Source: Candidatus Altimarinota bacterium (lineage in GTDB: Bacteria; Patescibacteriota; Gracilibacteria; BD1-5; UBA6164). Taken from it: 64,000 nt of DNA. Each line of letters begins with the position of its first letter. Position 1 is the first letter of the stretch. Position numbers and translations under genes: made by a program. The stretch covers positions 4,052 to 68,051 of the forward strand of contig JAMONT010000083.1 of NCBI GenBank assembly GCA_027066455.1, read 5' to 3'. Shown one piece after another: positions 5,374-63,620 of the stretch. The notes below the pieces were generated by a model. That model had not been told where the DNA came from, made no database searches, and worked only from the letters and a program-made list of their open reading frames with translations.

Positions 5374-7287
5374 ATGGCTGAATTAGTAGACACATATATA
5401 GAAGAAGAATTACAAAAAATAGTTTCAAAAGTTCTAGAAATTCATGGAGAGGATTTTAATTTTTATGAAATAGAAGAAATTTGTCTGGATTTTTTAAATG
5501 AAATTCCAGCTAAAATAAAAGATGTTACTAAAATTAAAAGACTTATAAAATATGTAAATAAAGAGTTTGAATTAGAAAATAAAGTAGGGAATGAAAATTT
5601 TCATTCTTTACAAAATAATTCACAATACAGTTTAGGAAAAATTCCAAAATATTTATTTGAATGAAAAACAAGAATTCAATCATGATTAATTAATATTATA
5701 GATTTAAAAGCAAATATTTGATTAACTGAACTTTTTGACTGACTTAATTTAAAAGTAAATAAAACTGATAAAATAGCTCTAATTTGAAAAAATGGTTGTT
5801 GAAAAACAACTTTATTAAAAATGATTATTTGAAAAAAAATTGATTTAATAGAAAGTGAATGAGAAATAAAACTTGCTCAATGATTAAATATTTGATACTT
5901 ATCACAAGATTTATTTTGGGAATCAGAAAACAATACTTTAGAAGAAGAAATGTTTAAAATTTTTCCAGAAATAACACAAAAAGTTGAAGAATTAGAAAAA
6001 ATCTCCCTTTTACAAAGGGAGTACCCGGAGGGGGAGGGATTTGAATGTGAGTACACAAAAATCCAAGAATTAACAGAATATTTACTAGAAAATGATTGAT
6101 TTAAAAAATATGAATTGCAAAAAAATATTTTGAAATATTTTGGTTTTTCAGATGAAAGAATGAAACAAAATGTTTTAAGTTTATCTGGTTGAGAACAAAC
6201 AAAAGTTCAAATTGCAAAATTTTTAATACAGCAAGTAGATTTATTAATTCTTGATGAACCAACAAATCATTTGGATATTGAATGAATTATTTTTCTTGAA
6301 AAGTTTTGTCAAAATTGGAAAAAAGCAATAATATCAATTTCTCATGATAAAAAATTTATTGATAATTCTAGTGAAAAAATAGTTGAAATTTATAGACATA
6401 AGGCTTTTAATTATGTTTGAAAATACTGTGATTATGAAAAACAAAAACAAGAAAGGTATGATAAAGAACTAAAAGATTTTAAAGACCAGAAAAAAATAAT
6501 TGATGAAGAAGAAGTATATATAAATAGATTTAGAGCAAATTCAGCAAAAGCATCAGCTATTCAATCTAGAATAAAAGCACTTGATAAAGTAGTAAGATTA
6601 AAAGAACCTGAACATGATCAAAAAGCAAGATTTATTTCTATTTCAACAACTAGAAGATTACCAGAAATAATTATAAAATTAAGAAATATTGAAGTTTGAT
6701 ATGATGAAATTTTAATAGAATTGCCAGAAGAAATTAATGTTTTGAAAACAGATAAAATATGAATAATTTGAGCAAATTGAACAGGTAAAACTACACTTTT
6801 AAAAACAATTTTATGAGATTTGAAAGCTTTAAATTGAACAAGTGAAATTAATGAAACTTTAAAAATTGGTTCATTTGCACAAATTCTTGATGAATTAAAT
6901 TTAGAAAATTCAATAATTAATGAATTATCTGAAAGTTTAAATGAGCAACAAGAAGTAAGAAAAATTTTGTGATGACTTTTAATAAAATGAGAAAAAGTTA
7001 ATCAAAAAATAAACTCTCTCTCATGATGAGAAAGAGCAAAAGTATGACTTACAAAAATGCTTTTACAAAAACCAGATATAATAATAATGGATGAACCTAC
7101 AAACCATCTAGATTTGCATTCAAAAGAAATTATCAAAACAATGTTAAAATGATTTGACTGAATGACTCTTATTGTTTCACATGACAGAGATTTACTTGAA
7201 AATGTATCTAATAAAATTTGGTTAATTAGAGATAAAAAAATGGAAATTTTTGATGAAGTTGAAAAATGAATTAGAGAGGTTTATTAA
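5374..7287 (+). CDS. ABC-F family ATPase (tandem ABC domains, EttA/Uup-like) with an N-terminal extension of about 100 aa
   Basis: Two Walker A motifs (GKNGCGKTTLLK, GANGTGKTTLLK), two signatures (LSGGEQTKV, LSGGERAKV) and two Walker B motifs (LLILDEPTNHLD, IIIMDEPTNHLD). 638 codons with TGA=Gly. Confidence 0.85.
6002..6051 (+). repeat. GC-rich palindromic element, variant copy, in-frame inside the ABC-F gene
   Basis: tctcccttttacaaagggag-tacccggagggggaggg-atttgaatgtgag. Translated as SLLQREYPEGEGFECE in the linker of ABC domain 1. Confidence 0.6.
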
Positions 7288-10825: not shown

Positions 10826-10872
10826 GAAGCCTCTTTCCTTTTGACCAAAAGGAGAGAATTCAAGAGAGGAAT
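10826..10872 (+). repeat. GC-rich palindromic element, intergenic copy
   Basis: gaagcctctttccttttgaccaaaaggagagaattcaagagaggaa. Ends about 7 nt from the stop codon (10879-10881) of the minus-strand gene. Confidence 0.75.
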
Positions 10873-10878
10873 ATTATT

Positions 10879-11280: not shown

Positions 11281-11363
11281 AATTTTACTTGATTAAAAAA
11301 TATTTTATACCTTTTTATAATATGAAAAAAAGCTAAATAGTCAAAAAAATTTTAAAAAAAAAA

Positions 11364-11410
11364 TTCCCCACTTGAATTCTCCCCTTTTGTAAAAAAAGGG
11401 AAGAGGCACA
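11364..11410 (-). repeat. GC-rich palindromic element, intergenic copy in reverse orientation
   Basis: The reverse complement reads tgtgcctcttccctttttttacaaaaggggagaattcaagtggggaa. Confidence 0.7.
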
Positions 11411-11427
11411 TAATTAATTACAATAAT

Positions 11428-11475
11428 TTGTAGCCCCCTTCCTTTTGACCAAAAGGAAGGGATTCAGGGAAGGAA
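11428..11475 (+). repeat. GC-rich palindromic element, intergenic copy
   Basis: tttgtagcccccttccttttgaccaaaaggaagggattcagggaaggaa. Ends 4 nt from the stop codon 11480-11482 of the beta-propeller gene. Confidence 0.8.
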
Positions 11476-11479
11476 TTTT

Positions 11480-19656: not shown

Positions 19657-20337
19657 TTAAATTTCTTTTATTTCTAAAACATAAAGTTTTTTATAAACTT
19701 CTTTTAAAATAAATTCTGATAATTTTTCAGATTTTTTTGCTGTAATAGTTATATTGATTTCTTGAAAGAAAAATGAAAAAATTTTGCTAGTTAAACTAAG
19801 TAAAAATTTATCTTTTCAATACATTTTTATCAATCTTTCAGTTAAAAGTGAAGAATATTCTATACTCAAAACATCAATAATATCTTCAACCCAAAGATTT
19901 ATTCTATTTTGAATTTCTGTATCAATAGTCAAATCATTAAATTCTTTTAATTCTTCTGAAATATAACTAAAATCTATTAATTCTTTTCATGATTTTATTC
20001 TGATTTTATCACTTATTGGTAAATAAATTAGAGATAAAAGTCAGATTAAAAAGTTGGAAGGATAACTTTCATCTAAACATGCAAAAAGGTCAGTTAATAA
20101 AAAATCATATTTTTTATTTTTTATTATTTTTATCAAAAAACTAGATAATAATAAATCACATTTTTTAGCTTTTGATTCATCTTTAATTGTTCTTTTTATT
20201 CAAGCTGCATCTTTTTTTGCTTTTTCAGAAGCCTTTTCAGATGCTTTTTCAGAAGCAGCATTTATTCAAGAATTAACTTGTCAATCTAGATTATTATCTG
20301 TACTTTCAAAGTTTGATTCTATATCTTCTAATCACAT
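19657..20337 (-). CDS. Hypothetical protein
   Basis: 227 codons, ATG 20337 to TAA 19657-19659 with TGA=Gly. N-terminal SEKASEKASEKAKK repeat. Confidence 0.5.
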
Positions 20338-20404
20338 ATTTTTTAAATTTAATTTATAAAATATTTTTTTTATTATATTTAAATAAATGTTTTTTACAAA
20401 AGTT

Positions 20405-23400
20405 TTAATCTTTTTTTTCAAATTTTATAGTTCAACCTTTTTTTACAAAATTTTCTAAAATACTTATATATTCATTATATTTTTCTTTATCTAAATCAGA
20501 ATGATAATTATTTTTAATATTTTCATAAACTGATTTTAATTCATCTGCTTCAAAATTATCTTTTTTTACTTGAGACAAAATAAGTTTTATAATTTGCATC
20601 AATTTTTTTGATCTCATTCTAGTTTTTACTCCAGTATTATCTTTGAAAACTACCCATTTATAAATACTAACATCAATATTTTTAATTTTTTTATTAACTG
20701 TTTTTTCTTTATCTTTCAAATTATCAAAACTAAATTCTGAAAGTAAATTATCTCAATATTTTTTTGTATATAAAGTAGAAATAATTATTAAAACAACTCA
20801 TAAAATTCAAAAAATAATATATCTTGAAGTTATATCTCAAACTTCCCAAACATCAAATAAAAATATTTTAGAGATAGTTAAAACTAAAAAATATAATCAA
20901 ATAGTTCTAAATTTTTGTAAATCTTTTTGAATTCAATAAATAAGTAAAACTGAAGCAATTAATCACCAATACAAAGTTAAAGAAAAATGTTCTAAATTAT
21001 TTTTAAAAATATCTAATACATAAATATTACTAACTAAAAATGCATAAATTCACAAAATAATTTTTAAAGTTAAATTAATTTTTTTATTTCAAATATTTTC
21101 TTCCTTTTCCAAAGGAAGTCCCGAAGGGGATGGATTATTGCTTTTTTTCCAAATAAAAATATTAAAAACTAAAATTCAAGTTACTAAATATTGCAATATT
21201 TTCAAATATTCTAAATTTCTAACTTCTAATGTAGAAAAAATATTATTTATATCTCAAATATGAAAAATAGAAAATCATAAAATAATTACTACAAAAACAT
21301 ATTTTAAAAAATTTGTATTCAATTTTGAATAAAAAAATCACAAAATTGTTATAAAAATAATTATCCCAAATTTACTCCATCAATTTCCATTACTAGGAAT
21401 TATTTCATATAATAAAATTCACATAATAATCATTCAAATTATATGTAAAATATAATGAATATTTTTTAAAACTATATTTTTTTCTTTTATACTCCTTCCC
21501 TTAGGCTTAAGGGAAGGTTGGGAAGGGTTAATTTCTTTTTCCTCTATAAAAAATAAATTTAAAATAAATGAAGCTAAAATTACTGAAAAACTAACTAAAA
21601 ATAAATAATTTTCTGATTTTACTTCATCAATTAAAATTCAAAATTGTGTTAATCAAATGAAAAATAAAATAGTTGCAGCAATAAATATTTTTTTAGAATT
21701 ATTTCTAGAGAAAATATAATACAAAATAGTTGCTTCAAAAAGCCAAACAGTTGTAATAATTTCTGGATATTTTGAAAATACAAAAACCATAGAAACAGAA
21801 AAAATTGAAATACTAATTCAAGCAAAAGTATAAAAAATATTTTTCAAACTTTCATCTTTTTTTACATTTTCTATTCAAATTTTTTGTATAAAAAAGTAAG
21901 CTTGTAAAAAATAAACAATTGCTAAAGCTAAAAAAGCAAATCATTCTATAACTCAAGGAAAATAAATTTCTCAATAATTATAAATTTGAAAAGAAATAAA
22001 TAATGCCGAAGCTACTACTCAAATAATTAAATTATAAAGATTTTGTTTTTCAAATAATCTTTTGTTTATAAAAGGTAAAACAAAATTAGAAATTGCAAAA
22101 ATAATTATTGCTATAATTGAAACTAAAAATAAAATTGAATTATTATTAGAAATTACTAAATATGGTGCAAAAGTTATTATTGTTCAAATTGTTCAAATAG
22201 GGAAGAGTGTAGATAAATCTTTTTTTGTTGAATAATAATAAGAAAAAAATAAAAATATAAAACTAGAAAATAAAATAGTAAAAAATTCTAAATTATTAAC
22301 ATTATTTAAATTTCAGATAATATTTAATTCTAAATTAAATAAAAATATAAAAAATCATAAAAATATAAAAAGAAAATATTTATAATAATTAGAAATATTT
22401 TTTTCTATAACTGAAAATCAAAGTAAAAATAATATTAAAAAAAGTGTTAAAGTGAAAGAAGAAAAAATTAAATCTCAAGAAAATAAAATTAAAATAATTA
22501 TTACAAAAGGAATAATAAATATAGAAAAAATTCCAGATTCCTTATCTTTTACAAAATTTTTCAAAAAATAAATACTAAAAGCAAATAATCATATCAAAGC
22601 AATATTATAAGCTAAAAAACTAAAAGTTTCAGATAAAAATCAAGAAGAATTAAATAAATTTAAAATTATAAAAAAATAAGTTCATAAAAAAATATATAAA
22701 ATATTTCAGCTAATATTATCTTTAGAAAAATTGTATGCTATTTTTATTGAAATAATACTTAAAATAATAGTAAAAATAATTTTTACACTCCAGCCAATTG
22801 AATCAGAAAAAGGTGCTGCAAAAAATAATAAATTTCAAAAAATAAAACTAATAATTAAAAGAGTTAAATTATTTTGTTTGTTAGCTAAGAATAAAGCTCA
22901 CAAACTTACAATAAAACTATATCAAACCAGAGTATAAGGTTCAGTTCCAGAAGTTCAAATTATAAAAGGATTTATGTATGCAAAAATAAATGAAAAAATT
23001 AAAAGAGTTTTTGATTTATAAATTAAAGAAGTTAAAATTCAAAGAATTGTATTTAAAATCAAAAATAAAAATGTTGTAGTTTCAGCAAAAAATATTTTAT
23101 TTCATCATATTAATAATTCATTTCATCATACTAAATGTCTTCAAGCTAAGATAACAGCATAATTTATCAAAATCCCTGTTCACATCAAAATAAGTCATTC
23201 TTGTTTATATTTTTTATGTAATTTTATTCAAGAAAAATAAATAATAAAACCAATAATTATTCAAATAACAACTCTTCAAATAGGTCAAATAATTTCCCAA
23301 ACATTTATTGCAAGTCATTTTAAAAAATATACAACCATTAAAAAAAGTAAAATTCATCATATTTTAGCTAAAATATTTGTAGAAAAAAAATTTTTTATAT

Positions 23401-23974
23401 ATGTTCAAAGTTTTTCAAAAAATATTTCAGTAGGACTTGATTCATAAAGTATTTTTTCTTTTGAAATTATTGTAGCCCCTTTCTCCCTATAAGGGAGAGA
23501 GGATTCAGGAGAGAGGGGATTTTCTTTTTTTATAGTTTCAAATCATTCATCTGGTAAATCATTAATTCCAATTTTTTCTTCTTCCAAAGATTTTGTTCAA
23601 AAACCAATTTTATCTAATTTAGTTTCAATATTTTCTTTTAATTCCAAAGATTTATATTTTATATCTTCATTTTTTAATTCATCTACTTTACTTTTTATTT
23701 TATCAATTTCTATATTTTCTTTTTTTTCATTTTTTACAAAACTATCATTATTTTTAGTTTTTTTATTTTCAATTGCATTTGCAAAAAATTCTAATCTTTC
23801 TTTTATAAAAGTACTAGAAAATAAACTTTTTTTTATAATTAAAATAAGAAAAATAGTAGTTATGAAAAAAATAAATTCTCATAAAAAATAAAAAAATCAT
23901 GAAAAAAATCCAATAATAACTATTCAAAGTATTATTGATATAACCCAAGCAAATCTATTTAGTAATTTAAACAT
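20405..23974 (-). CDS. DUF2339-like polytopic membrane protein (about 1190 codons)
   Basis: N-terminal TM helix plus coiled coil, then several dozen hydrophobic helices. The C-terminal soluble domain equals track ORF 20432-20719 plus GTIKFEKKD. Length is divisible by 3 and no TAA/TAG was met in manual translation. Confidence 0.65.
21100..21136 (+). repeat. GC-rich palindromic element, variant copy, in-frame in the DUF2339-like gene
   Basis: cttccttttccaaaggaag-tcccgaagggga-tggatt. Read on the minus strand as NNPSPSGLPLEKEE. Confidence 0.6.
21492..21529 (+). repeat. GC-rich palindromic element, diverged copy, in-frame in the DUF2339-like gene
   Basis: ctccttcccttaggcttaagggaaggttgggaagggtt. 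Read on the minus strand as NPSQPSLKPKGRS. Confidence 0.6.
23470..23519 (+). repeat. GC-rich palindromic element, consensus-like copy, in-frame in the DUF2339-like gene
   Basis: ttgtagcccctttctccctataagggagagaggattcaggagagagggga. Read on the minus strand as ENPLSPESSLPYREKGATII. Confidence 0.85.
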
Positions 23975-24019
23975 ATTTTTTTTATTAAGAATTATTTTAT
24001 AATTAAACTTTCCCTTTTT

Positions 24020-24067
24020 TGTAGCCTCTTTCTCCCCACAAGGGAGAGAGAATTCAAGAGAGAGGGA
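24020..24067 (+). repeat. GC-rich palindromic element, intergenic copy
   Basis: tgtagcctctttctccccacaagggagagagaattcaagagagaggga. Abuts the stop codon 24070-24072 of the TSP3-repeat gene. Confidence 0.8.
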
Positions 24068-24069
24068 AA

Positions 24070-25731
24070 TTATTTCAATTTTACAGCCATTTTGAATATT
24101 GCAATTCAGAAAAACACTATAACTAAAGACAAAAGTATCATAAAAATATTTTTATTTGATTCAAAAAATCTATCATCTTTTTTATCACAAACATCTCAAA
24201 TTCAATCCAAATCAATATCACTTTGAAGAGGATTATAATCATAAGGACAATTATCATTTTTTGCTAAAATTTTATCTAAATCAGAATCTTCACAAGCATC
24301 TCAAATCCCATTATTATCCGAATCTTTTTGAAGAGGATTATAAATATTTATACAATTATCTTTTATTCAACTTATTCAATCAGAGTCAGAATCTTCACAA
24401 ATATCTCAAACTCAATTTTTATTTTCATCAAGTTGATCAGAATTTTGAATATTTTTACAATTATCACAAACATCTCAAATTCCATCTTTATCAAAATCCT
24501 CTTGCTTAGGATTAGCCATTTCTTCACAATTATCTTGAGAATTAATTATTTTATCTCAATCTTTGTCATTTTCTTTTAAAAATTTTTCTTTTTCCTCAGT
24601 AACATCTCCAATTCAATTATTATTTTTATCTAATTGTCTTGGATTATAATAAATTGAATTATCACATTTATTTCAAATATTATCCAAATCATCATCTTTT
24701 TGAAGAGGGTTAGCAATATTTATACAATTGTCTAATTGATCAAAAATTCAATCAGAATCCTTATCAAATTCACATTTATCTCATACTCAATTTCTGTTTA
24801 TATCTTCTTGCTTAGGATTATAAACATTTATACAATTATCTTTTTTTCAAATTATAGAGTCTCAATCATCATCACTACACAAATCTCCAATTCAATCAGC
24901 ATTTTTATCAAATTGTTTTGGGTTAGCTATTTTTGGACAATTATCTTCTGAATCAGGAATTTTATCTAGGTCAAAATCTTCTACTTTATTTGGATTAAAA
25001 TTTGGATTTTCTTTTAATTCTAAAAAAATAGTTTTTGTATTTTTATTTAAATTATATTCTCAATAATTATTTTTTAAATTTATATAATTATTTTTACAAA
25101 TATTTTTAGCATAAGCTTTTATTTCTCAAATAGTTTTTACTAAATAAATATAATTTTTTGAAATAAATTTTAGTTCAAAAATTTTAATTTTTTCAGGAGG
25201 AGTAATATGTTTTACTGTTGTATTAAAAGAAATTTTTAAAAATTTGAAATCATAAGTGTTTAATTTTTTTTCTGGAACAAAAAAATATTTTTCTCAATCT
25301 TTAGAAATTTCAATATGAGCATTTCTATAATTTGCTTTATATTCAAAATTAAAATCAAAACTTCAAGCTTTTAATATTTTATCAAATTCTAAAAATATAG
25401 AATTTTTATTTTTTTCCTCATCATAAATTAAAAAAGTTTTATAATTTTCATCACTCAAATATTCTAAATTTCAAAATAAATTTTTTATTTTAAAATCCAA
25501 AATTCATCAATAATTTTTATATAATTTATGAGGAATAATTTTATTATCAGAAATAAAAGTATCTATTTTTTTTGTAGAATTTATTTTTAAAGTTCATTTT
25601 TCTTGTTTTAGAATTCAAAAAAATTCATAACAATTTTCTTTAAAATTTTCAGGAATTTTTTTGAATTCTTGTGCAAAACTAGAATTTATAAATAAAAAAA
25701 ATATTGAAATTAGAACTATTAATTTTTTCAT
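24070..25731 (-). CDS. Secreted thrombospondin type-3 (calcium-binding) repeat protein with C-terminal TM anchor
   Basis: 554 codons. Signal peptide MKKLIVLISIFFLFINSSFA. About eight DNCxxxxNPxQxDxDxDGIGDxCD repeats. C-terminal IFMILLSLVIVFFGIAIF helix. Confidence 0.8.
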
Positions 25732-30572: not shown

Positions 30573-30619
30573 TGTAGCCCCTTTCCCTTTGGCTAAAGGG
30601 AAAGGATTCAGGATAGGGA
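30573..30619 (+). repeat. GC-rich palindromic element, intergenic copy
   Basis: tgtagcccctttccctttggctaaagggaaaggattcaggataggga, in the divergent intergenic region 24 nt upstream of ATG 30644. Confidence 0.8.
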
Positions 30620-30643
30620 TAATATTAAATTAAAAAACTACTT

Positions 30644-32157: not shown

Positions 32158-32235
32158 GGATGTGTAGCTCAGTTGGTTTAGAGCACTGCACTGTCACTGC
32201 AGGGGTCGCGAGTTCGAGTCTCGTCATATCCGCCA
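32158..32235 (+). tRNA. tRNA-Asp (GTC)
   Basis: Cloverleaf GGATGTG/CATATCC acceptor, anticodon loop CTGTCAC, TTCGAGT T-loop, encoded CCA. Confidence 0.9.
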
Positions 32236-32326
32236 TTTAAAAATTGGTAAAAAAGTTATTTAAAATTATAAATTTGTATTAAAATTTGCAAAAATATAAT
32301 TTTAATACAAATTTTTTATTGTTTCT

Positions 32327-32403
32327 GGGGAATTAGCTCAGTTGGCTAGAGCGCCTGCCTTGCACGCAGGAGGTCAGGAGTTCGACTCTCCTATTCTCCA
32401 CCA
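32327..32403 (+). tRNA. tRNA-Ala (TGC)
   Basis: Acceptor GGGGAAT/ATTCTCC with G3:U70, anticodon loop CTTGCAC, encoded CCA. Confidence 0.9.
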
Positions 32404-32427
32404 TTATATTTATTTAATTTCCAAAAA

Positions 32428-32637
32428 ATGCCAGCAAATAAAAGACCAAGAAAATTAAACTATGCTGTAAATCAAAAAGGTAAAATAACTTGAAGTAAAG
32501 TTGGTAATGCTATTAAGGCATATAAAAAACTTAAAACAAGAGAAGATTTTGAATGAAAAACTAAATGGCTGGAAAAAGCTTTTGAATTTTCTAAAGCTAA
32601 GTTAAAGAAATATTGAATAAATCCTAACAAAATTTAG
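32428..32637 (+). CDS. Small basic hypothetical protein (69 aa)
   Basis: ATG 32428 to TAG 32635-32637 through three TGA codons. MPANKRPRKLNYAVNQKGKITGSKVGN... No family recognised. Confidence 0.35.
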
Positions 32638-32787
32638 TTATGTATAGATTAAGAACACAAGCTCGTAAAAAAATACAAAGAGCATTAAGAACTATTGAAA
32701 AAAAAGTTAAAAAGAAACAAAGATAATTTTTCTTTTTTAACTGTATTAAAAAATTATTTAAATTTTATTTTTATTATTATATATATT

Positions 32788-33987
32788 ATGGCTTACGATA
32801 GAAGCAAACCACATATGAATATTGGTACTATTGGTCATGTTGATCATGGTAAAACTACTACTACTGCTGCAATTTCAGCTGTATTAAGTGCTAAATATAA
32901 TCCTGATGCAGTAATCAAAGATTTTGCTGCAATTGATAATGCTCCTGAAGAAAGAGCTAGAGGTATTACTATTAATACTTCTCATATTGAATATGAAACT
33001 GCTAATAGACACTATGCTCATGTTGATTGTCCAGGACATGCTGATTATGTTAAAAACATGATTACAGGTGCTGCACAAATGGATGCTGCAATATTAATTG
33101 TTGCTGCAACTGATGGTCCTATGGCACAAACTAGAGAACATATTTTATTATCTAGACAAGTATGAGTTCCTTATATTGTTGTTTATATGAATAAATGTGA
33201 TATGGTTGATGATGAAGAAATGATTGAATTAGTTGAAATGGAAATTAGAGATTTATTAACTAAATATGAATTTCCTGGTGATGATACTCCAGTTATTAAA
33301 GGTTCAGGTTTAGTTGCTCTTGAAAATCCTACTGATATGGATAAAGAATATGGAGCAAAAACTATTATAGAATTATTTGAAGCTATAGAAGAATTTGTTC
33401 CTGTTCCTGATAGACCTACTGATAAAGATTTTCTAATGCCTATTGAAGATGTATTTTCAATTAAAGGTAGAGGTACTGTTGTTACAGGTAAAATTGAAAC
33501 TTGAATTATTAAAGTTGGTGAAGAAGTTGAAATTGTTGGTATAAAAGAAACTACAAAAACTACTGTTACTGGAGTTGAAATGTTCCACAAATTATTAGAT
33601 GAAGGACAAGCTTGAGATAATGCTGGTTTACTAATAAGAGGTGTAGAAAGAGAAGATGTTGAAAGAGGTCAAGTTCTTGCTAAACCTGGAACAATCAAAC
33701 CACATACTGATTTTGAAGCTACTGTATATATACTTTCTAAAGATGAAGGTGGTAGACATACTCCATTTTTCAAAGGTTATAAACCTCAATTTTACTTCAG
33801 AACTACTGATGTAACTGGTGATATTGAATTACCAGAAGGAGTTGAAATGGTTATGCCTGGTGATAATATTGATTTCAAAGTTAAATTACAACAAGCTATT
33901 GCAATGACTGATGGTCTAAAATTTGCAATAAGAGAAGGTGGTAGAACTGTTGGTTCATGAGTTGTTTCTAAAATTATTACTGTATAA
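32788..33987 (+). CDS. tuf: Elongation factor Tu
   Basis: [24 protein letters not shown]...DCPGHADY...NKCDM. In-frame TGA at 33163-33165 (LLSRQV-G-VPYIVV), at 33502-33504 (GKIET-G-IIKVGEE), and at two further conserved Gly positions (GQA-G-DNAG, VGS-G-VVSK). Confidence 0.97.
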
Positions 33988-34082
33988 TTTTACATAGAAA
34001 TAAAAAAATATCATTTGATAAACTAACTATTATAAAAATTATAATAGTTAGTAATTAAGTTATATTTGTTATTTAAAATAAA

Positions 34083-34406
34083 ATGGCTACAAAAAAAGCA
34101 GAAGGAAGAATTAGAATTACAGTTAAAGCTTTTGATCATAGATTATTAGACTGAGCTGTTAAAAATATTATTTTAGTTGCTAAAGACTCTGGTGCTAGCA
34201 TTGCTGGTCCAATACCTCTTCCAACTAAAATTGATAAAATTACTGTTAATAGATCTACATTTGTAAATAAAGATGCTAGAGAACAGTTTGAAATTAGAAG
34301 ACACAAGAGATTGATTGATATTAAAGAATCAACTCCTAAAACTTTGGAATTATTACAAAAACTTAATATTCCAAATGGTATAGGTGTTTCTATAAAAGTT
34401 GGGTAG
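34083..34406 (+). CDS. rpsJ: 30S ribosomal protein S10
   Basis: MATKKAEGRIRITVKAFDHRLLDGAVKNII...GPIPLPTKIDKITVNRSTFVNKDAREQFEIRRHKRLIDI. Confidence 0.95.
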
Positions 34407-34443
34407 CCAACAATTAAAAATTTATTTAGTTAAAAATTAAAAG

Positions 34444-34641
34444 ATGTCTAGAGTATGTCAAGTAACTTGAAAAAAAACAAGTTTCTGAAATAATAGAAGT
34501 AAATCTTTAAGGGCTACTAAAAGAACTTTTAAACCAAATCTTTTTTACAAGAAAATAAAAGATCCTGAAACTGGTTTAGTTTTTAGAATTAGAGTTTCTG
34601 CTAAAGGTATTAGGACTTTAAGAAAACATTGAGTTATATAA
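34444..34641 (+). CDS. rpmB: 50S ribosomal protein L28
   Basis: [33 protein letters not shown]...VSAKGIRTLRKHG. Confidence 0.9.
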
Positions 34642-34707
34642 AAAATTATATAAATTCCCTTTAACCTCCTCTTTTTTGAGGAGGAAAAAATAAAGGAAAC
34701 TACTTTT

Positions 34708-34792
34708 GCCCGGATGGTGGAATTGGTAGACACGCAAGACTTAAAATCTTGTTTCTTCGGAAGTCCGGGTTCAATTCCCGGTCCGGGCACCA
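34708..34792 (+). tRNA. tRNA-Leu (TAA)
   Basis: Acceptor GCCCGGA/TCCGGGC, anticodon loop CTTAAAA, long variable arm, encoded CCA. Confidence 0.9.
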
Positions 34793-34832
34793 TTTAAAAA
34801 AATTAAAAAAATAATTTATAAAAAATAGAATA

Positions 34833-35072
34833 ATGTTAAAAATAAGATTATCAAGAGCAGGTAAAAGAAATATGCCGTTTTTTAAAATAGTATTAACTGA
34901 ACATACTAAAGCTGCTAAACACGGTTATAAAAAAGTATTAGGTTTTTTTAATCCTATATCTAAAGAATTTAAAATAAAAGATGTTGAAGAAGTTAAAAAA
35001 TATATTTCTAATTGAGCTCAATTTTCTCCTAGAATGAAAAAATTACTTGAAATGAATAATGTTACTATTTAG
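34833..35072 (+). CDS. rpsP: 30S ribosomal protein S16
   Basis: MLKIRLSRAGKRNMPFFKIVLTEHTKAAKHGYKKVLGFFNP... Track ORF extended through one TGA. Confidence 0.93.
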
Positions 35073-35141
35073 TAAATATTTTTAAGTACCTTCTTTAAAA
35101 AACATTTAAAGAAGGTTTTTTACCTTTTTAAATATAATATT

Positions 35142-35381
35142 ATGAATAATGAAGTAGAATTTTTACAATATGTTGTTGAAAATTTGGTAGAACATAAAGA
35201 TGATATACAAATAGAAAGAAAAGAAGATGAAATGTGAATTTTATTAACTTTAAAAGTAAATGAAGAAGATATGAAATATGTTATATGAAAGGCTGGAAAT
35301 GTAGTTAATTCTATAAGAAATTTGTTAAAAATTTTAGGTTTAAAAGCCCAAAAAAGAATTAATTTAAAAGTTGAATGATAG
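35142..35381 (+). CDS. KH-domain RNA-binding protein (YlqC/KhpA-like)
   Basis: ...ILLTLKVNEEDMKYVIGKAGNVVNSIRNLLKIL... with the GxxG motif. Follows rpsP, as is typical for this family. Confidence 0.8.
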
Positions 35382-35487
35382 TAAAAAAATATTTATATTA
35401 TCCAATATAATAAAAATTAAAATATAATATTTGATTTTTATTATTTTATCAATATAATATTTTTATTATTTTAATAAAAAAGAAAAT

Positions 35488-35940
35488 ATGTTTATAGAAA
35501 CAGTATCAGCATTATATCAAAATAGTGATGCTGAAGGTTGAGTTTTTGCATGAGCTATGGATTTTTGAGAGTTTATATTATTATGAATTTCTGTAGTTGT
35601 ATTTTTGTGATTTTTATTATCTGTAATTTTTATATTATGGTGAGGTTTACTTTTGATTTTATCAGGAGGTAAAGAAGAAAAAACAAAACCAGCTATTAAT
35701 ACTATAAGGTATGCAATTTTGTGAATTTTTATTACAGTTGGTGCTATTTTTATAGCTCCTATACTTTGAAATTTACTTTGAATGCCAGAAATTGCTAAGA
35801 AATATTTTAGTCCAACAGCAATTTATGAAAATATTAGAGCTTTAGGTGATAAAATGTTTAATTGAAATAATACAGCTCCTTGAAGTTCAGATATTTATGA
35901 TTGAAATGATAGGTCTAGTTTAAAAGATTTAGATTTCTAA
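35488..35940 (+). CDS. Small two-helix membrane protein (possibly T4SS pilin-like, TrbC/VirB2-type)
   Basis: Two hydrophobic helices separated by the charged loop SGGKEEKTKPAINTIRYA. 151 codons. The assignment is tentative. Confidence 0.45.
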
Positions 35941-36055
35941 AAAATCTAAAAAATTAATTTTTAAAGAAAAAAAGTAAAAAAAAAGTTTGACTTTTTAAAG
36001 ATAAAATATAAAATCCTTCTTGCTTATTTAAAAATATAAATAAGTAAGAAAATGT

Positions 36056-36130
36056 TCCTCCGTAGCTCAGTGGTAGAGTAGATGACTGTTAATCATTTGG
36101 TCCCTGGTTCGAATCCAGGTGGGGGAGCCA
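36056..36130 (+). tRNA. tRNA-Asn (GTT)
   Basis: Anticodon loop CTGTTAA, T-loop TTCGAAT, encoded CCA. Confidence 0.85.
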
Positions 36131-36201
36131 TAAAAAAATATATAAGGACTTATAACTTAGAAAAATAGAATTTCTATAATTTAAGTTACAAGTCCTTTTT
36201 T

Positions 36202-36290
36202 TGGAGAGATGGCTGAGTGGTCGAAAGCAACGGTCTTGAAAACCGTCGTATCGCAAGATACCCAGGGTTCGAATCCCTGTTTCTCCGCCA
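36202..36290 (+). tRNA. tRNA-Ser (TGA)
   Basis: Acceptor GGAGAGA/TTTCTCC, anticodon loop CTTGAAA, long variable arm, encoded CCA. Confidence 0.9.
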
Positions 36291-36331
36291 TTTTTAAAAA
36301 TTGGCTAAAATTTAAAAAATTAAAAAATATT

Positions 36332-36421
36332 GGAAAGGTGCCAGAGTGGTTGAACGGGCTCCCCTGCTAAGGGAGTGAACCTTTACGGGTTCCGTGGGTT
36401 CAAATCCCATCCTTTCCGCCA
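36332..36421 (+). tRNA. tRNA-Ser (GCT)
   Basis: Acceptor GGAAAGG/CCTTTCC, anticodon loop CTGCTAA, long variable arm, encoded CCA. Confidence 0.9.
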
Positions 36422-36442
36422 TTAAAAATTTTTCTTTTTTAA

Positions 36443-36518
36443 GGGCCTGTAGCTCAGGGGTTAGAGCAGTTGGCTCATAACCAATTGGTCGTTGGTTCAA
36501 TTCCAACCAGGCCCACCA
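36443..36518 (+). tRNA. tRNA with CAT anticodon (elongator Met or lysidine-modified Ile2; not initiator-like)
   Basis: Acceptor GGGCCTG/CAGGCCC with a paired 1:72, anticodon loop CTCATAA, no GGG/CCC anticodon stem, encoded CCA. Confidence 0.85.
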
Positions 36519-44134: not shown

Positions 44135-44842
44135 TTAAATTTTATCAAAACAAATTATATATTCTTCAAATGAAGAATCTCTACAAGCCAAAGGTTTATA
44201 AGTTTTATAGCTTTTAAATCTTTTTTTTATTTCTTTTTGTAAATCTCTAAAATCTTCTCAAACAAAAACTTTTAAAAGCATATTTCATCATTTTTTCAAA
44301 AAATTATCAGAAAATTTACAAATTTCTATATTTAATTCAACAGAAGCATATTGGTCAACATCTTTTCTCCCAGTTGTATTTGGAGCAATATCACTAGTTA
44401 TTAAATCAAATTGTTTTAATTCATATTTTTTTGTAGCCCCTTTCTCCCCAATAGGGAGAGAGGATTCAGGAGAGAGGGCTTTTATTTTTTCTCTTAATTT
44501 TTCAAAATCAAAAATATCACAAACAATAGTTTTTATATTTTTATTTCAAAAACTTTTTATTTCCTTTAAATCAACTCAAATAATAATTTTATTTTTTACA
44601 ATTTGACTAATTAATTGCAAAAAACTACCAGGAGCTGCTCATATATCTATTATATTCATTTCTGGTTTTATAAGTTCAAATCTTTTTTGAATTTCTTCTA
44701 ATTTATAAATACTTCTTGCTCTAAAACCAGCTTTTTGAGCTGCAATTGCATAAGCATCTTTTACAACAAATTGTCACTTTTTTGTATTTCTTTTTCTATG
44801 AAAACCAGTTTTTCCTTTTCCATTTTTTATATTTTTTTTCAT
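44135..44842 (-). CDS. rlmE: 23S rRNA 2'-O-ribose methyltransferase RlmE/FtsJ
   Basis: ...RARSIYKLEEIQKRFELIKPEMNIIDIGAAPGSFLQ...DLITSDIAPNTTGRKDVDQ...NMLLKVFVGEDF... 236 codons including a 17-aa insert encoded by a repeat element. Confidence 0.85.
44432..44478 (+). repeat. GC-rich palindromic element, consensus-like copy, in-frame inside rlmE
   Basis: tgtagcccctttctccccaatagggagagaggattcaggagagaggg. Read on the minus strand as ALSPESSLPIGEKGAT. Confidence 0.85.
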
Positions 44843-50624: not shown

Positions 50625-52508
50625 TTATTTTGTAAGTAAATTATAATATCACATAAATTTATAACCAACTTTTTCCATTTCTATTCAAACAACTTGAGCA
50701 TAAAAACAAGTTAAATTATTATCACAAATAGTCACAATTTCTACATCTTTTGGAATTTGTTTAATAGATTCTGCCCATTTATTTTTTGACAAATAAACCA
50801 AAGGAATATTAAAACTTCATTTTAAATGAGAATTATCAAAAACTTCTTTTTTTCTAACATCAATTAAATAAATTCAATTTTTGTATTTTTTTTCTAAAAT
50901 ATTTTTTGAAAATTTGTATTTATATCTAGGTTTTTTATAAACTTTAAAAACATCTTTTTCTCACTTATAGTTTCATTTTTCTTTTATCCATCAACTTACT
51001 CAATTTTCTAAAAATCTCACATCAAATCATTTTGTTTTCAAAAATTCAGCAACTTCTATTGATTTTGTTTTTTCCCAAGTATAAACAACTATAATTTTCT
51101 TTTTATCCAATTTATCATATCCACCATTTATTAAATCAGCAAATCTGATAAACACACTTCCATCAATATAACCAGCCTTTCTTTCTATATTTTCTCTTGC
51201 ATCTAAAAGTAAATATTTTTTATTTTTTGTTTTTAAAATATTTTTTAATTCTATATTTTTAATTGATTTTATATTTATTTTTTTATTTATTTTTTTATTT
51301 TCTTCTTTTTTTTCTAAAGGAGTAATTTTTATAGTTTTACTTGTTTTTATCTTAAATTTTCAATTTTTTAATTTAATTAATTCTTTCAAAACTAAATAAT
51401 TTTTTAGTCAATTTTTATCATAAATTTCTAAATCAATAAAATAATTATTTTTAGTATTTTTCTTTAAGTAAACTTTATTTACAACTATTTTTTTTACATC
51501 TTTATACCAATTTTTATACTTTTCAAAACTAGTTTTTTTAGCTGAATTTTCATAAGCTTTTTTTAATTCTTTTTTTACTATACTATTATAATGATTTCTA
51601 AAAAATTTTTCCTCACTACTTTGCTTTACAGCCCCTTTTTCCACACCCAGGAGAGAGGATTCAGGAGAGAGGGTTTTTTTGGTTTCTGCTTTTTTTCACT
51701 TCACCAAAATTATTTTTCTTTTACTTTTTGCAAGCTCTTTTTTATAATTTTCTAGTTCTTTTTTATAATCTTGTTTTTCTTTTTTAGATAATGATTTTTC
51801 ATTTTCTATTCAAAAAAAATCATCTTCTTCATCTTCAATATTAATAGAAAAAATATCTGTTTTAGTATTTGTTTTAGCTTTTTCTAATTCTAATTCTCTT
51901 AATCTTTTTCTATTTTTTAATTTTTGAGAAATACTATATTCTTCAACTAAATTTTCAGAAAAATCTCAAGAATTTACTTTATTAATGCTTTTATCAATAT
52001 TAATTAAATCTTGTTGTAATCTTTTTATATTTGTTTGAATTTCATTACTTTTCAAAATATTTTCATTTGTACTAAAAGTGTCTTTTTCTATTTTTTTAGA
52101 ATTTTCTATTTTTTCTTCAAGTAATTTAAATTTAGAAGTTTGTTTTTCTAATTCTATTTGTAAAAGTTTTCTTCTAGCTTTTTCACTATTAAACTTTATT
52201 TTTATTGAAGTTGTTCACTTTTTTTCTTCATTTTTCAAATTTAATATTTGATTTTTTTGAAAATTTAAATCAAGTAAAAATGAAAATCATAATGAAATCA
52301 AAATAATAACAGAAAAGAAAAAGTTTTTTTTATTTCTTTCTATATATTTTGTTTTTGTATAAAAGTGAAAAGTAATTCATATAAAAAAAGTCAAAGCAAT
52401 AAAATATAACCAAAAATTTGATTTTGGTTCAAAATTATTTATATTTTCTGCATTAGAAAAGGAAATAAATAAAAAGAATATTAAAAATATTTTTATTAAT
52501 TTAATCAT
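50625..52508 (-). CDS. Membrane-anchored coiled-coil protein with two C-terminal rhodanese-like domains
   Basis: 628 codons. Start, stop and track ORF 51408-51644 share one frame. ...LLLDARENIERKAGYIDGSVFI... and ...YLIDVRKKEVFDNSHLKGSFNIP...ICDNNLTCFYA... are rhodanese signatures. Confidence 0.6.
51629..51674 (+). repeat. GC-rich palindromic element, consensus-like copy inside the rhodanese-protein gene
   Basis: acagcccctttttccacacccaggagagaggattcaggagagaggg. The track ORF start (MEKGAV...) lies inside it. Confidence 0.8.
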
Positions 52509-62474: not shown

Positions 62475-63527
62475 TTAAATTACTTCCCATTGTTCAAATT
62501 CTAAAATTTCTCAACTGTCTAAAAAAATTTTTCTATCTTCAAATTTTTCCAAAATTCAATTCTTTTTTTCTCTTGAATAAATATTTTCTAAACAAATTTT
62601 TTTTCAAATATTTTTTTCTAAAATTTCAGTTTGTTTTCCTATCATAAAAATAATTTTATCTGTATATTTTTGACCTAAATTAGCATTTTCTCAAAAATAT
62701 TTTGCTGAACTTTCTATATTTTTTATAAAAGAATTTTCATCTTTTTGTTCAACAAATTCATTGAATTTTTTTGTAGATTTCATAAATTCTTTATGAACAT
62801 TCAAAACTTCAGAATTATACATTTGTATATCTCCATAAAGTTTTGGATTTTGCCCAACATATCTACCAACTGAACTAATCATTATTTTATAAATTGGTGA
62901 AACAAAAGAAAAAGATTTTTTTATATCAAACTCTAAATTTTTCATTGTATCAGCTAAAACAAACATATTAAAATGTGTCAAACCTTGAACTACAGCCATC
63001 ATTTTGTCGTGTTCTTCTGGAGTTTCTTCTACAACTTTTGCTCAAGAATTTTCTAAAAAATTCTTTAAAAAAATATATCTTTCATCATTTTTATCATTTT
63101 TATTTAAAGGAGTTAAAACAAAAATTTGTCCAGCAATTGTTGAAATAAATGGCCCAAACATTGGGTGAGTTGGTAATATAAAAACATCTTCTGGAGAATA
63201 TTTTTTCAAAGCTTTTGCAGGTCATTTTTTTATAGAACAAACATCTAAAACAATTGAATCTTTTTTCAAAAATGGTGCAACTTTTTCTATAATTTCATTC
63301 ATAAAAGCAATTGGAACAGCAAATACAGTTATATCAGAATCTTTTACTGAAGCTATATTATCTACAGAAAATAAACAATTTAATTCTTTAGCAACTTTTT
63401 TTAATTTTTCTTCATTTCTTCAAGTAATTGTAAGTTCAACTTTTTCTTTGAAATTTTTTAAAATAAATTTTGCTAACCATAAACCAAAACCATCACTTGC
63501 TCATATAATTGTTATTTTTTTTATCAT
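62475..63527 (-). CDS. tyrA: Prephenate dehydrogenase
   Basis: MIKKITIIGASDGFGLWLA (NAD fold) ...THPMFGP...EEHDKMMAVVQGLTHF... In frame with track ORF 62691-63002 and extended through TGA to TAA 62475-62477. Confidence 0.8.
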
Positions 63528-63571: not shown

Positions 63572-63620
63572 TGTAGCCCCTTTCTCCCTATCAGGGAGAG
63601 AGGATTCAGGTGAGAGGGAG
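63572..63620 (+). repeat. GC-rich palindromic element, consensus-like intergenic copy
   Basis: tgtagcccctttctccctatcagggagagaggattcaggtgagagggag. Ends 1 nt from the stop codon 63622-63624 of the tex fragment. Confidence 0.85.

Follow-up and report, generated by a model that had tools for sequence, protein, structure and literature searches.

Probable in-frame insertions of small repeats with a triplex-type design in a DUF2339 membrane protein gene of Gracilibacteria

Two groups of bacterial repeats stand closest to the elements described here. Rickettsia palindromic elements (RPE), ~100-150 bp in length, are in-frame palindromic repeats located within and between Rickettsia genes (Ogata et al., 2000, as summarized in PMC10969869). 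The BoxC, PIT and TMECO repeats of Escherichia coli are class II intrastrand-triplex repeats that form triplexes in vitro (Holder et al., 2015; PMC4666352); according to the same study, TMECO and BoxC are always intergenic, without strand bias and without a known mobility gene. Here, we analyzed three repeat copies lying in frame within the gene of a DUF2339 (PF10101) polytopic membrane protein on a 64-kb stretch of contig JAMONT010000083.1 from a Candidatus Altimarinota bacterium (Gracilibacteria); the whole stretch of 64,000 nucleotides (nt) is referred to as the window. Our results suggest that the three segments are, in all probability, insertions of small, non-coding and probably selfish repeats in permissive sites of the DUF2339 protein. 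RPE-type in-frame elements and intrastrand-triplex repeats are each already known, while their combination, the host group, the genic density and the orientation rule reported below appear to be new. A literature search found no description of such elements in Gracilibacteria, and the paper on the closed genome CP042461.1 is silent on them.

The window has a G+C content of ~20% and contains almost no long open reading frames (ORFs) under the standard bacterial code (table 11). A first-pass annotation of this DNA had stated that the DUF2339 ORF stays open across the three copies. With table 11 this does not apply, as 60 in-frame TGA codons interrupt the ORF, but the frame is open provided that TGA is a sense codon for Gly, as in genetic code 25 of Candidatus Gracilibacteria. 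Besides its 60 TGA codons, the minus-strand frame 20405-23974 contains 15 GGN and 9 TGG codons and a single TAA, located at the frame end. Across the ORFs of the window, which were called as simple stop-to-stop frames of at least 120-150 codons, TGA is the main Gly codon (TGA 911, GGN 335, TGG 118). The assignment of TGA to Gly follows from its use at glycines conserved in all homologues, namely in the Walker A and LSGGE motifs of an ABC-F protein, MCGI of a GlmS-like protein and DxGxxPG of RlmE. No tRNA-Gly(UCA) was found within the 64-kb window. The protein matches PF10101 with E = 5e-31 and 108.6 bits (gathering cut-off 33.6), and the start codon and N-terminus agree with homologue P0001. 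There were 122 significant homologues; among the 120 listed, those whose source is named belong to Candidatus Gracilibacteria, except for one Candidatus Vampirococcus protein.

Three segments of this protein are encoded by repeat copies: ENPLSPESSLPYREKGAT (residues 151-168, window 23471-23524), NPSQPSLKPKGRS (residues 816-828, window 21491-21529) and NNPSPSGLPLEKEE (residues 946-959, window 21098-21139). All are read from the minus strand, and each forms an island with >50% G+C inside a gene with ~18% G+C; a stretch crossing an element-host junction reads ...KENPLSPESSLPYREKGATIISK.... These coordinates and peptides are exactly those of the first-pass annotation, which was also right that all three copies are read from the strand opposite to the consensus, since the consensus strand of the elements is plus and the reading antisense to it. 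It erred, however, in describing the used frame as the only one lacking stop codons, as 3, 4 and 5 of the 6 frames are open in the three copies. Open frames are common in the elements because these are GC-rich and TGA is a sense codon. Glycines inside the repeat elements are written by GGN codons rather than TGA.

The DUF2339 protein of the window was aligned with 60 homologues. Residues 946-959 form a clean insertion of ~16 residues that is missing from 58 of the 60 homologues, and residues 816-828 lie within a stretch of ~18-20 residues that is missing from most of them. Residues 151-168 belong to a hydrophilic linker of variable length, and their sequence is present in none of the 60 proteins. 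On either side of every insert, homology continues without a change of frame. The segments were then mapped on the AlphaFold model of homologue P0013 (mean predicted local distance difference test score, pLDDT, 73.9). Residues 816-828 correspond to a 5-residue loop (784-788) between helices 765-783 and 789-813, residues 946-959 to a 4-residue loop (897-900) between helices 877-896 and 901-931, and residues 151-168 to a disordered linker with pLDDT <50. The model thus places two copies in inter-helix loops and one in a disordered linker, in agreement with the earlier claim that all copies fall in hydrophilic segments between helices. Judged against the 60 homologues, segments 816-828 and 946-959 are lineage-specific insertions in inter-helix loops of 4-5 residues.

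The few homologues with extra residues at one or other of the two inter-helix loops were found to carry other triplex-type elements there, all of them antisense: P0001 at the 816-828 loop, and P0005 and P0023 at the 946-959 loop. Additional triplex-type copies are located in the N-terminal linkers of P0001 and P0023. As orthologues hold other elements of this type at the same loops, the same permissive DUF2339 sites appear to have been colonised repeatedly and independently. In the orthologue of locus L160 (P0023), three TTA-spacer copies are located at residues 66, 757 and 938, all antisense and in frame, and the TTA-spacer element of P0023 has a design that comes very close to that of TMECO type A in E. 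coli: CCTCTCCC-TTG-GGGGGAGG-TTA-GGAGGGGG.

In the order that the elements share on one strand, a loop of 3-6 nt joins a pyrimidine arm to its complementary purine arm; next come a short spacer and another purine arm, which mirrors the first one (reversed but not complemented). The spacer is ATTCA in the main family, TTG or TTA, or a mini-hairpin, and a T/GTAGCC head is located directly 5' of the hairpin in nearly all copies. The main family (type A), represented by the copy at 23471, reads TTTTGYAGCCYCTTTCTCCC-(loop)-GGGAGAGAGRATTCARGWGAGAGGG. The three DUF2339 copies had been taken as copies of one element; this holds for their architecture, but they belong to three subfamilies, and only the copy at 23471 is a member of the main ATTCA-spacer family. 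Likewise, the reading as a plain palindrome accounts for the hairpin part but misses the added mirror-repeat purine arm, which gives the elements the design of a class II intrastrand triplex. The same succession of pyrimidine arm, loop, purine arm, short second loop and reverse-Hoogsteen purine arm with A-to-T substitutions is found in BoxC/PIT/TMECO of E. coli, for example in CCCTCTCCC-TTGA-GGGAGAGGG-TTA-GGGTGAGGG (PMC4666352). Further features in common with TMECO are the richness in G/C, 9-11 triads, inverted pairs and the lack of a known mobility gene, and some Gracilibacteria copies have a TTA second loop. Unlike TMECO, the main Gracilibacteria family carries GTAGCC as its head, ATTCA as its second loop and far more diverse arms, and 30-48% of the Gracilibacteria copies are genic and in frame (41 genic copies in this lineage, 33 in other genomes). 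The Gracilibacteria units of 39-48 nt also differ from the longer RPE in size and in their mirror-repeat arm, which sets them apart from RPE-1 to RPE-10 as these are outlined in PMC10969869, and there is no sign of common descent. A search of the window against Rfam returned only tRNAs and no family matching the elements.

A 23-nt core of the main family occurs five times in the window, compared with no occurrence in 100 shuffled sequences, and was found in 66 metagenome stretches, ~60 of them from one sample with ~21% G+C. None of these stretches overlaps the window, and together with the window they contain 87 near-identical copies. While the exact core has no match in the GTDB representative genomes, a generalised pattern detected the ATTCA family in at least 90 stretches from over 20 genomes of Gracilibacteria, among them the complete CP042461.1. 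For type C (copy 21491), a 91%-identical copy was found in an unrelated gene of the metagenome organism (L027, 2649-2685), where it is read in the same frame as NPSQPSLKTKGRS. Type B has at least 10 copies elsewhere, one of them in the ABC-F gene of the window. Related to type B but diverged from it, the copy at 21098 is the most diverged of the three DUF2339 copies, and no close copy of it was found elsewhere. The base preceding the GYAGCC head is T in 73 of the 73 profiled type A copies of this lineage, and of their flanks only the 5' one is T-rich. A role as an intrinsic terminator was rejected, given that no terminator-like site is present in 20300-24300 and the 3' flanks are not consistently T-rich. 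There was no match of the elements in IMG/VR viral contigs and hence no sign of a phage vector.

The pairing of the three arms was analyzed in copies chosen solely by head and spacer, which yielded 106 unique arm sets with 1060 triads from more than 20 Gracilibacteria genomes. Canonical triads account for 917 of the 1060 (86.5%), comprising 441 C-G*G, 284 T-A*A and 192 T-A*T, whereas permuting either outer arm among elements (1000 permutations) gave ~60% canonical triads with a maximum of 65%. At several positions, C-G*G and T-A*(A/T) replace each other as entire triads. A second selection showed a G in the purine arm to be matched by a G in the mirror arm in 93.5% of cases, compared with at most 68% in shifted or direct-repeat registers. 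T.G wobbles (53) far exceed C.A mismatches (11), which points to the pyrimidine-purine-purine strand as the one carrying the selected structure, and ordinary in silico folding confirmed the Watson-Crick hairpins. The triads follow the C-G*G, T-A*A and T-A*T code of class II triplex repeats, and a purine-motif intrastrand triplex may fold in vivo. Since purine-motif triplexes do not form in RNA (PMC4666352), the selected structure is most likely single-stranded DNA.

Frame, length and orientation were determined for the copies of the window and of the related metagenome organism, unless other Gracilibacteria are named. About half of the copies in this lineage lie inside genes and the rest are intergenic, a dispersal of palindrome-containing repeats also described for RPE in the summary cited above. 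Genic type A copies use the three antisense frames in a ratio of 32/7/1 (n = 40). The main frame gives the peptide LSPESSLPxxEKGAT and the second (7/40) PLSGILS, with TGA read as Gly. Frame keeping, a recurrent peptide from mostly one frame and sites tolerated by the protein fold (the DUF2339 loops and linker, and a helix-strand junction of RlmE) are likewise in line with that summary of RPE, and the likening of these repeats to RPE in the first-pass annotation is supported by their dispersal, kept frame, location in loops and linker, and absence from homologues. Measured from GYAGCC to GGG, 35 of 40 genic copies have a length of 46 nt, as opposed to only 16 of 33 intergenic copies; a 47-nt variant is seen in 12 of the 33 intergenic copies but in 1 of the 40 genic ones (Fisher p = 3e-4). 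Main-frame copies are exclusively 46 or 49 nt long, and adding one flanking base on either side gives a unit of 16 codons (48 nt). No other finding supports translation of the genic copies as well as this length filter, which makes it probable.

The frame and length data also bear on two other explanations. GC clusters and bypass elements of yeast mitochondria are mobile inserts, structured and rich in GC, that reside within the coding regions of very AT-rich genomes; translational bypass elements break the frame and are skipped. The present elements resemble them in combining structure and high GC content with a place inside coding regions of an AT-rich genome and might, in the manner of the Magnusiomyces mitochondrial bypass elements, be passed over by the ribosome or cut out of the mRNA. 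The Gracilibacteria inserts, however, hold the frame, and the frame used is free of stops; frame-shifting lengths are depleted in genes and one frame is used in 32 of 40 copies, and skipped elements would need none of this. Skipping or removal is therefore very improbable. Alternatively, the segments might not be inserted DNA repeats at all but low-complexity loops native to the protein, or a peptide module under selection (for example a signal for sorting or modification), as the peptide LSPESSLPxxEKGAT recurs in many proteins. This is scarcely credible in view of the half of the copies that are intergenic with the same nucleotide sequence, and of the conservation of nucleic-acid pairing instead of peptide. 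Both orientations and several frames are used to read the family in other Gracilibacteria, sense frames in ORFs of more than 1000 codons among them, so the peptide is not a conserved feature.

In this lineage, 41 genic copies are antisense to the host gene and none is sense, an absolute orientation in one lineage that, together with a host from the candidate phyla radiation using code 25, differs from what the summary of RPE describes. Among intergenic copies between co-directional genes, 23 are antisense and 1 is sense. As these are biased as well, a coding constraint alone does not account for the bias. The gene strand changes at 30% of adjacent gene pairs, two loci contain genic copies in both orientations and seven of the host genes are encoded on the strand that is in the minority at their locus; the bias hence tracks the gene and not replication.

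These observations could also be explained by structured DNA that benefits the host and is kept for a function, for instance as a polymerase pause or barrier, a recombination hot spot or a nucleoid-protein site, with the peptide as a side effect. Such a role would agree with the equal quality of genic and intergenic arms (9.88/10 pairs and 10/10 mirror positions), with three-way compensatory change persisting over more than 20 genomes, with the extension of the orientation bias to intergenic copies and with the link of E. coli TMECO loci to genome rearrangement (PMC4666352). However, positions are not conserved in orthologues, where the same loops hold members of different subfamilies, the majority of sites being lineage-specific, the host genes are functionally unrelated, copy number and orientation rules vary by lineage, and the copy at 51628-51673 has stayed despite the loss of its hairpin. 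Conservation for a host function is thus unlikely.

Several points weigh against the insertion of selfish repeats as the explanation. At residues 151-168 an insertion cannot be delimited, since the linker aligns poorly, and lineage-specific insertion as claimed by the first-pass annotation holds only for 816-828 and 946-959. Neither an empty-site allele nor a target-site duplication was found, the compared metagenome loci not overlapping the window, and for this reason the insertion events are inferred from homologues at most 79% identical. Translation of the segments is deduced from frame conservation, and some of the metagenome loci are strain duplicates, by which the copy counts are slightly inflated. 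The equally perfect arms of genic copies fit recent insertion but would fit selection for a host function equally well. Moreover, other Gracilibacteria do not show the orientation bias, with 16 antisense and 17 sense genic copies and 18 antisense and 19 sense intergenic ones; it is specific to one lineage or subfamily. The G-content of the arms does not separate orientations in the unbiased genomes, although the biased subfamily has 6 C-G*G triads (plus one T.G*G) compared with ~4 in the unbiased ones. A search of ~570 kb of element-rich DNA with phmmer and two approximate Y1-transposase queries gave no match, which is a weak test.

REP elements carry a GTAG head. The elements could accordingly be of the REP/REPIN type and be mobilised by a RAYT, a Y1 HUH transposase recognising the GTAG head and the hairpin. 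The Gracilibacteria elements share with REP/REPIN a GTAG-type head 5' of a GC-rich hairpin, many copies and occasional inverted doublets, as seen in the T-GTAGCC head directly 5' of the hairpin in nearly all copies and in one inverted doublet at 11362-11477. This origin is nonetheless improbable, because REPs are extragenic while the Gracilibacteria copies are also genic, the third, mirror purine arm is foreign to REP and is given no function by the REP/RAYT model, the E. coli analogue BoxC lacks a known mobility gene, and the Y1 queries, weak as that test is, remained without a match.

Taken together, the data show repeat identity, three-way covariation, lineage-specific presence, loop location and filtering of frame and length, from which we infer translation, triplex folding in vivo, the means of spread and the cause of the antisense bias. 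The element, probably a selfish or at least dispensable repeat, would land at many sites and survive where it is harmless. Within a gene, survival would require an open frame, a length of 3n and a tolerant loop, and purifying selection would clear copies that shift the frame or hit structured regions. Survival would be helped by a GC-rich element in a ~20% GC genome, by TGA as a sense codon and by the 48-nt (16-codon) main unit, and a surviving insert would appear as a peptide loop rich in P/S/L and G/E/K/R. As single-stranded DNA, the element could fold into a class II purine-motif intrastrand triplex (C-G*G, T-A*A, T-A*T). If the pyrimidine-purine-purine strand were the non-template strand, it would be exposed in transcription and could fold into the triplex and block RNA polymerase, and sense-oriented copies would then be lost. 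That selection against a non-template triplex-forming strand explains the antisense rule is a suggestion in which we have low confidence; it rests on one lineage, since the bias is absent elsewhere and arm G-content is not predictive.

The features of the window are compiled in Table 1. About half of its 12 copies are intergenic, compared with an intergenic share of ~12% of the window. The insert in the RlmE gene is missing from all 120 of 120 homologues, one of which is 79% identical, and is located between a helix and the strand preceding the DxAPN catalytic motif. In the rhodanese-domain gene, the copy at 51628-51673 has kept both purine arms and lost the hairpin complementarity of its pyrimidine arm, with the frame still intact; it looks like a decaying copy. 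The type B element of the ABC-F gene lies between the Q-loop region and the first LSGGE signature, where the alignment to solved ABC-F structures breaks, so that the insertion is not delimited. The members of the inverted pair at 11362-11477 differ in their arms, and a third ATTCA-type element (10832-10873) is found 500 nt off.

Table 1. Host gene and repeat copies in the window (positions count from the first letter of the window).
Feature	Position	Strand	Reading or context	Parts
Host gene, DUF2339 (PF10101) polytopic membrane protein	20405..23974	minus	1189 codons, code 25, 60 TGA = Gly codons	
Type A element, 48-nt unit	23471..23518	+	antisense reading (N)PLSPESSLPYREKGAT, residues 151-168	head GTAGCC 23472-23477; pyrimidine arm 23478-23487; loop TATAA 23488-23492; purine arm 23493-23502; spacer ATTCA 23503-23507; mirror purine arm 23508-23517
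Type C element	21491..21530	+	antisense reading NPSQPSLKPKGRS, residues 816-828	pyrimidine arm 21494-21503; loop GGCT 21504-21507; purine arm 21508-21517; spacer TTG 21518-21520; mirror arm 21521-21530
Type B-like element	21098..21139	+	antisense reading NNPSPSGLPLEKEE, residues 946-959	pyrimidine arm 21100-21107; loop 21108-21110; purine arm 21111-21118; mini-hairpin spacer 21119-21130; mirror arm GATGGATT 21129-21136
Type A copy, T/A subfamily, intergenic	24021..24066	+	47-92 nt upstream of DUF2339 start codon	
Type A copy in RlmE/FtsJ methyltransferase gene (44135-44842, minus)	44432..44479	+	read as ALSPESSLPIGEKGAT	
Type A copy, decayed pyrimidine arm, in rhodanese-domain gene (50625-52508, minus)	51628..51673	+	read as LSPESSLLGVEKGAV	
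Type A copy, intergenic	63573..63618	+	upstream of minus-strand gene 62475-63527	
Type B copy in ABC-F ATPase gene (5374-7287, plus)	6001..6043	+	sense reading ISLLQREYPEGEGF	
ATTCA-spacer variant, intergenic	10832..10873	+		arms AAAGGAGAGA / AGAGAGGAA
Inverted pair of ATTCA-spacer variants, intergenic	11362..11477	11362-11404 minus, 11436-11477 plus		
ATTCA-spacer variant, divergent intergenic region	30580..30621	+		arms AAAGGGAAAGG / GGATAGGGA

Outside the window, the metagenome contigs L018 (Ga0102810_1017734) and L059 (Ga0102812_10159628) contain a full type A element in sense orientation within an ORF of 266-370 codons, read as LLSPSGRENSRERDE. Their G+C content of 37-38% indicates a different organism, and these copies may represent a transfer beyond the low-GC lineage. 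Many public homologues (among P0001-P0120) show W where the window protein and code-25 NCBI entries show G, for example HIIWMII for HIIGMII; such public Gracilibacteria genes were apparently translated with TGA as Trp (code 4), giving dozens of wrong residues per protein. Directly upstream of the DUF2339 gene, three related genomes (L067, L159, L160) carry a thrombospondin type 3 repeat (PF02412) gene, and the corresponding ORF of the window (24070-25731) is likewise rich in aspartate repeats, a likeness judged by composition. The pair of an aspartate-repeat gene and DUF2339 appears to be conserved. The sole table 11 "ORF" near DUF2339 (24156-24509, plus strand) is repetitive, rich in H/Y/N/K and antisense to the 24070-25731 gene, and almost certainly does not represent a gene. 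At 32158-36518, tRNA genes form a cluster of seven (Asp, Ala, Leu, Asn, Ser, Ser, Met) around tuf and ribosomal protein genes.

A bolder possibility, which we regard as doubtful, is that Gracilibacteria carry a new non-autonomous mobile DNA that is recognised via an intrastrand triplex, coupled to the direction of transcription and routinely adding loops of 13-18 residues to proteins. If this were true, these reduced, recoded genomes would have in it a major source of new protein sequence that is specific to the lineage, and the diversity of the arms would be evidence in vivo for the formation and importance of bacterial DNA triplexes.

The elements would represent an independent case of selfish DNA within protein genes, which is best known in Rickettsia, here in recoded bacteria that belong to the candidate phyla radiation. 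They join the literature on in-frame palindromic elements with that on bacterial intrastrand-triplex repeats, which were thought to be intergenic only. At least 100 natural arm variants provide strong comparative evidence of selection on three-stranded pairing, which is hard to demonstrate in vivo, and the lineage-specific antisense rule offers a testable link between triplex potential and transcription. Finally, the inserts, together with the TGA = Trp mistranslations in public data sets, affect annotation, alignment and structure prediction of Gracilibacteria proteins.

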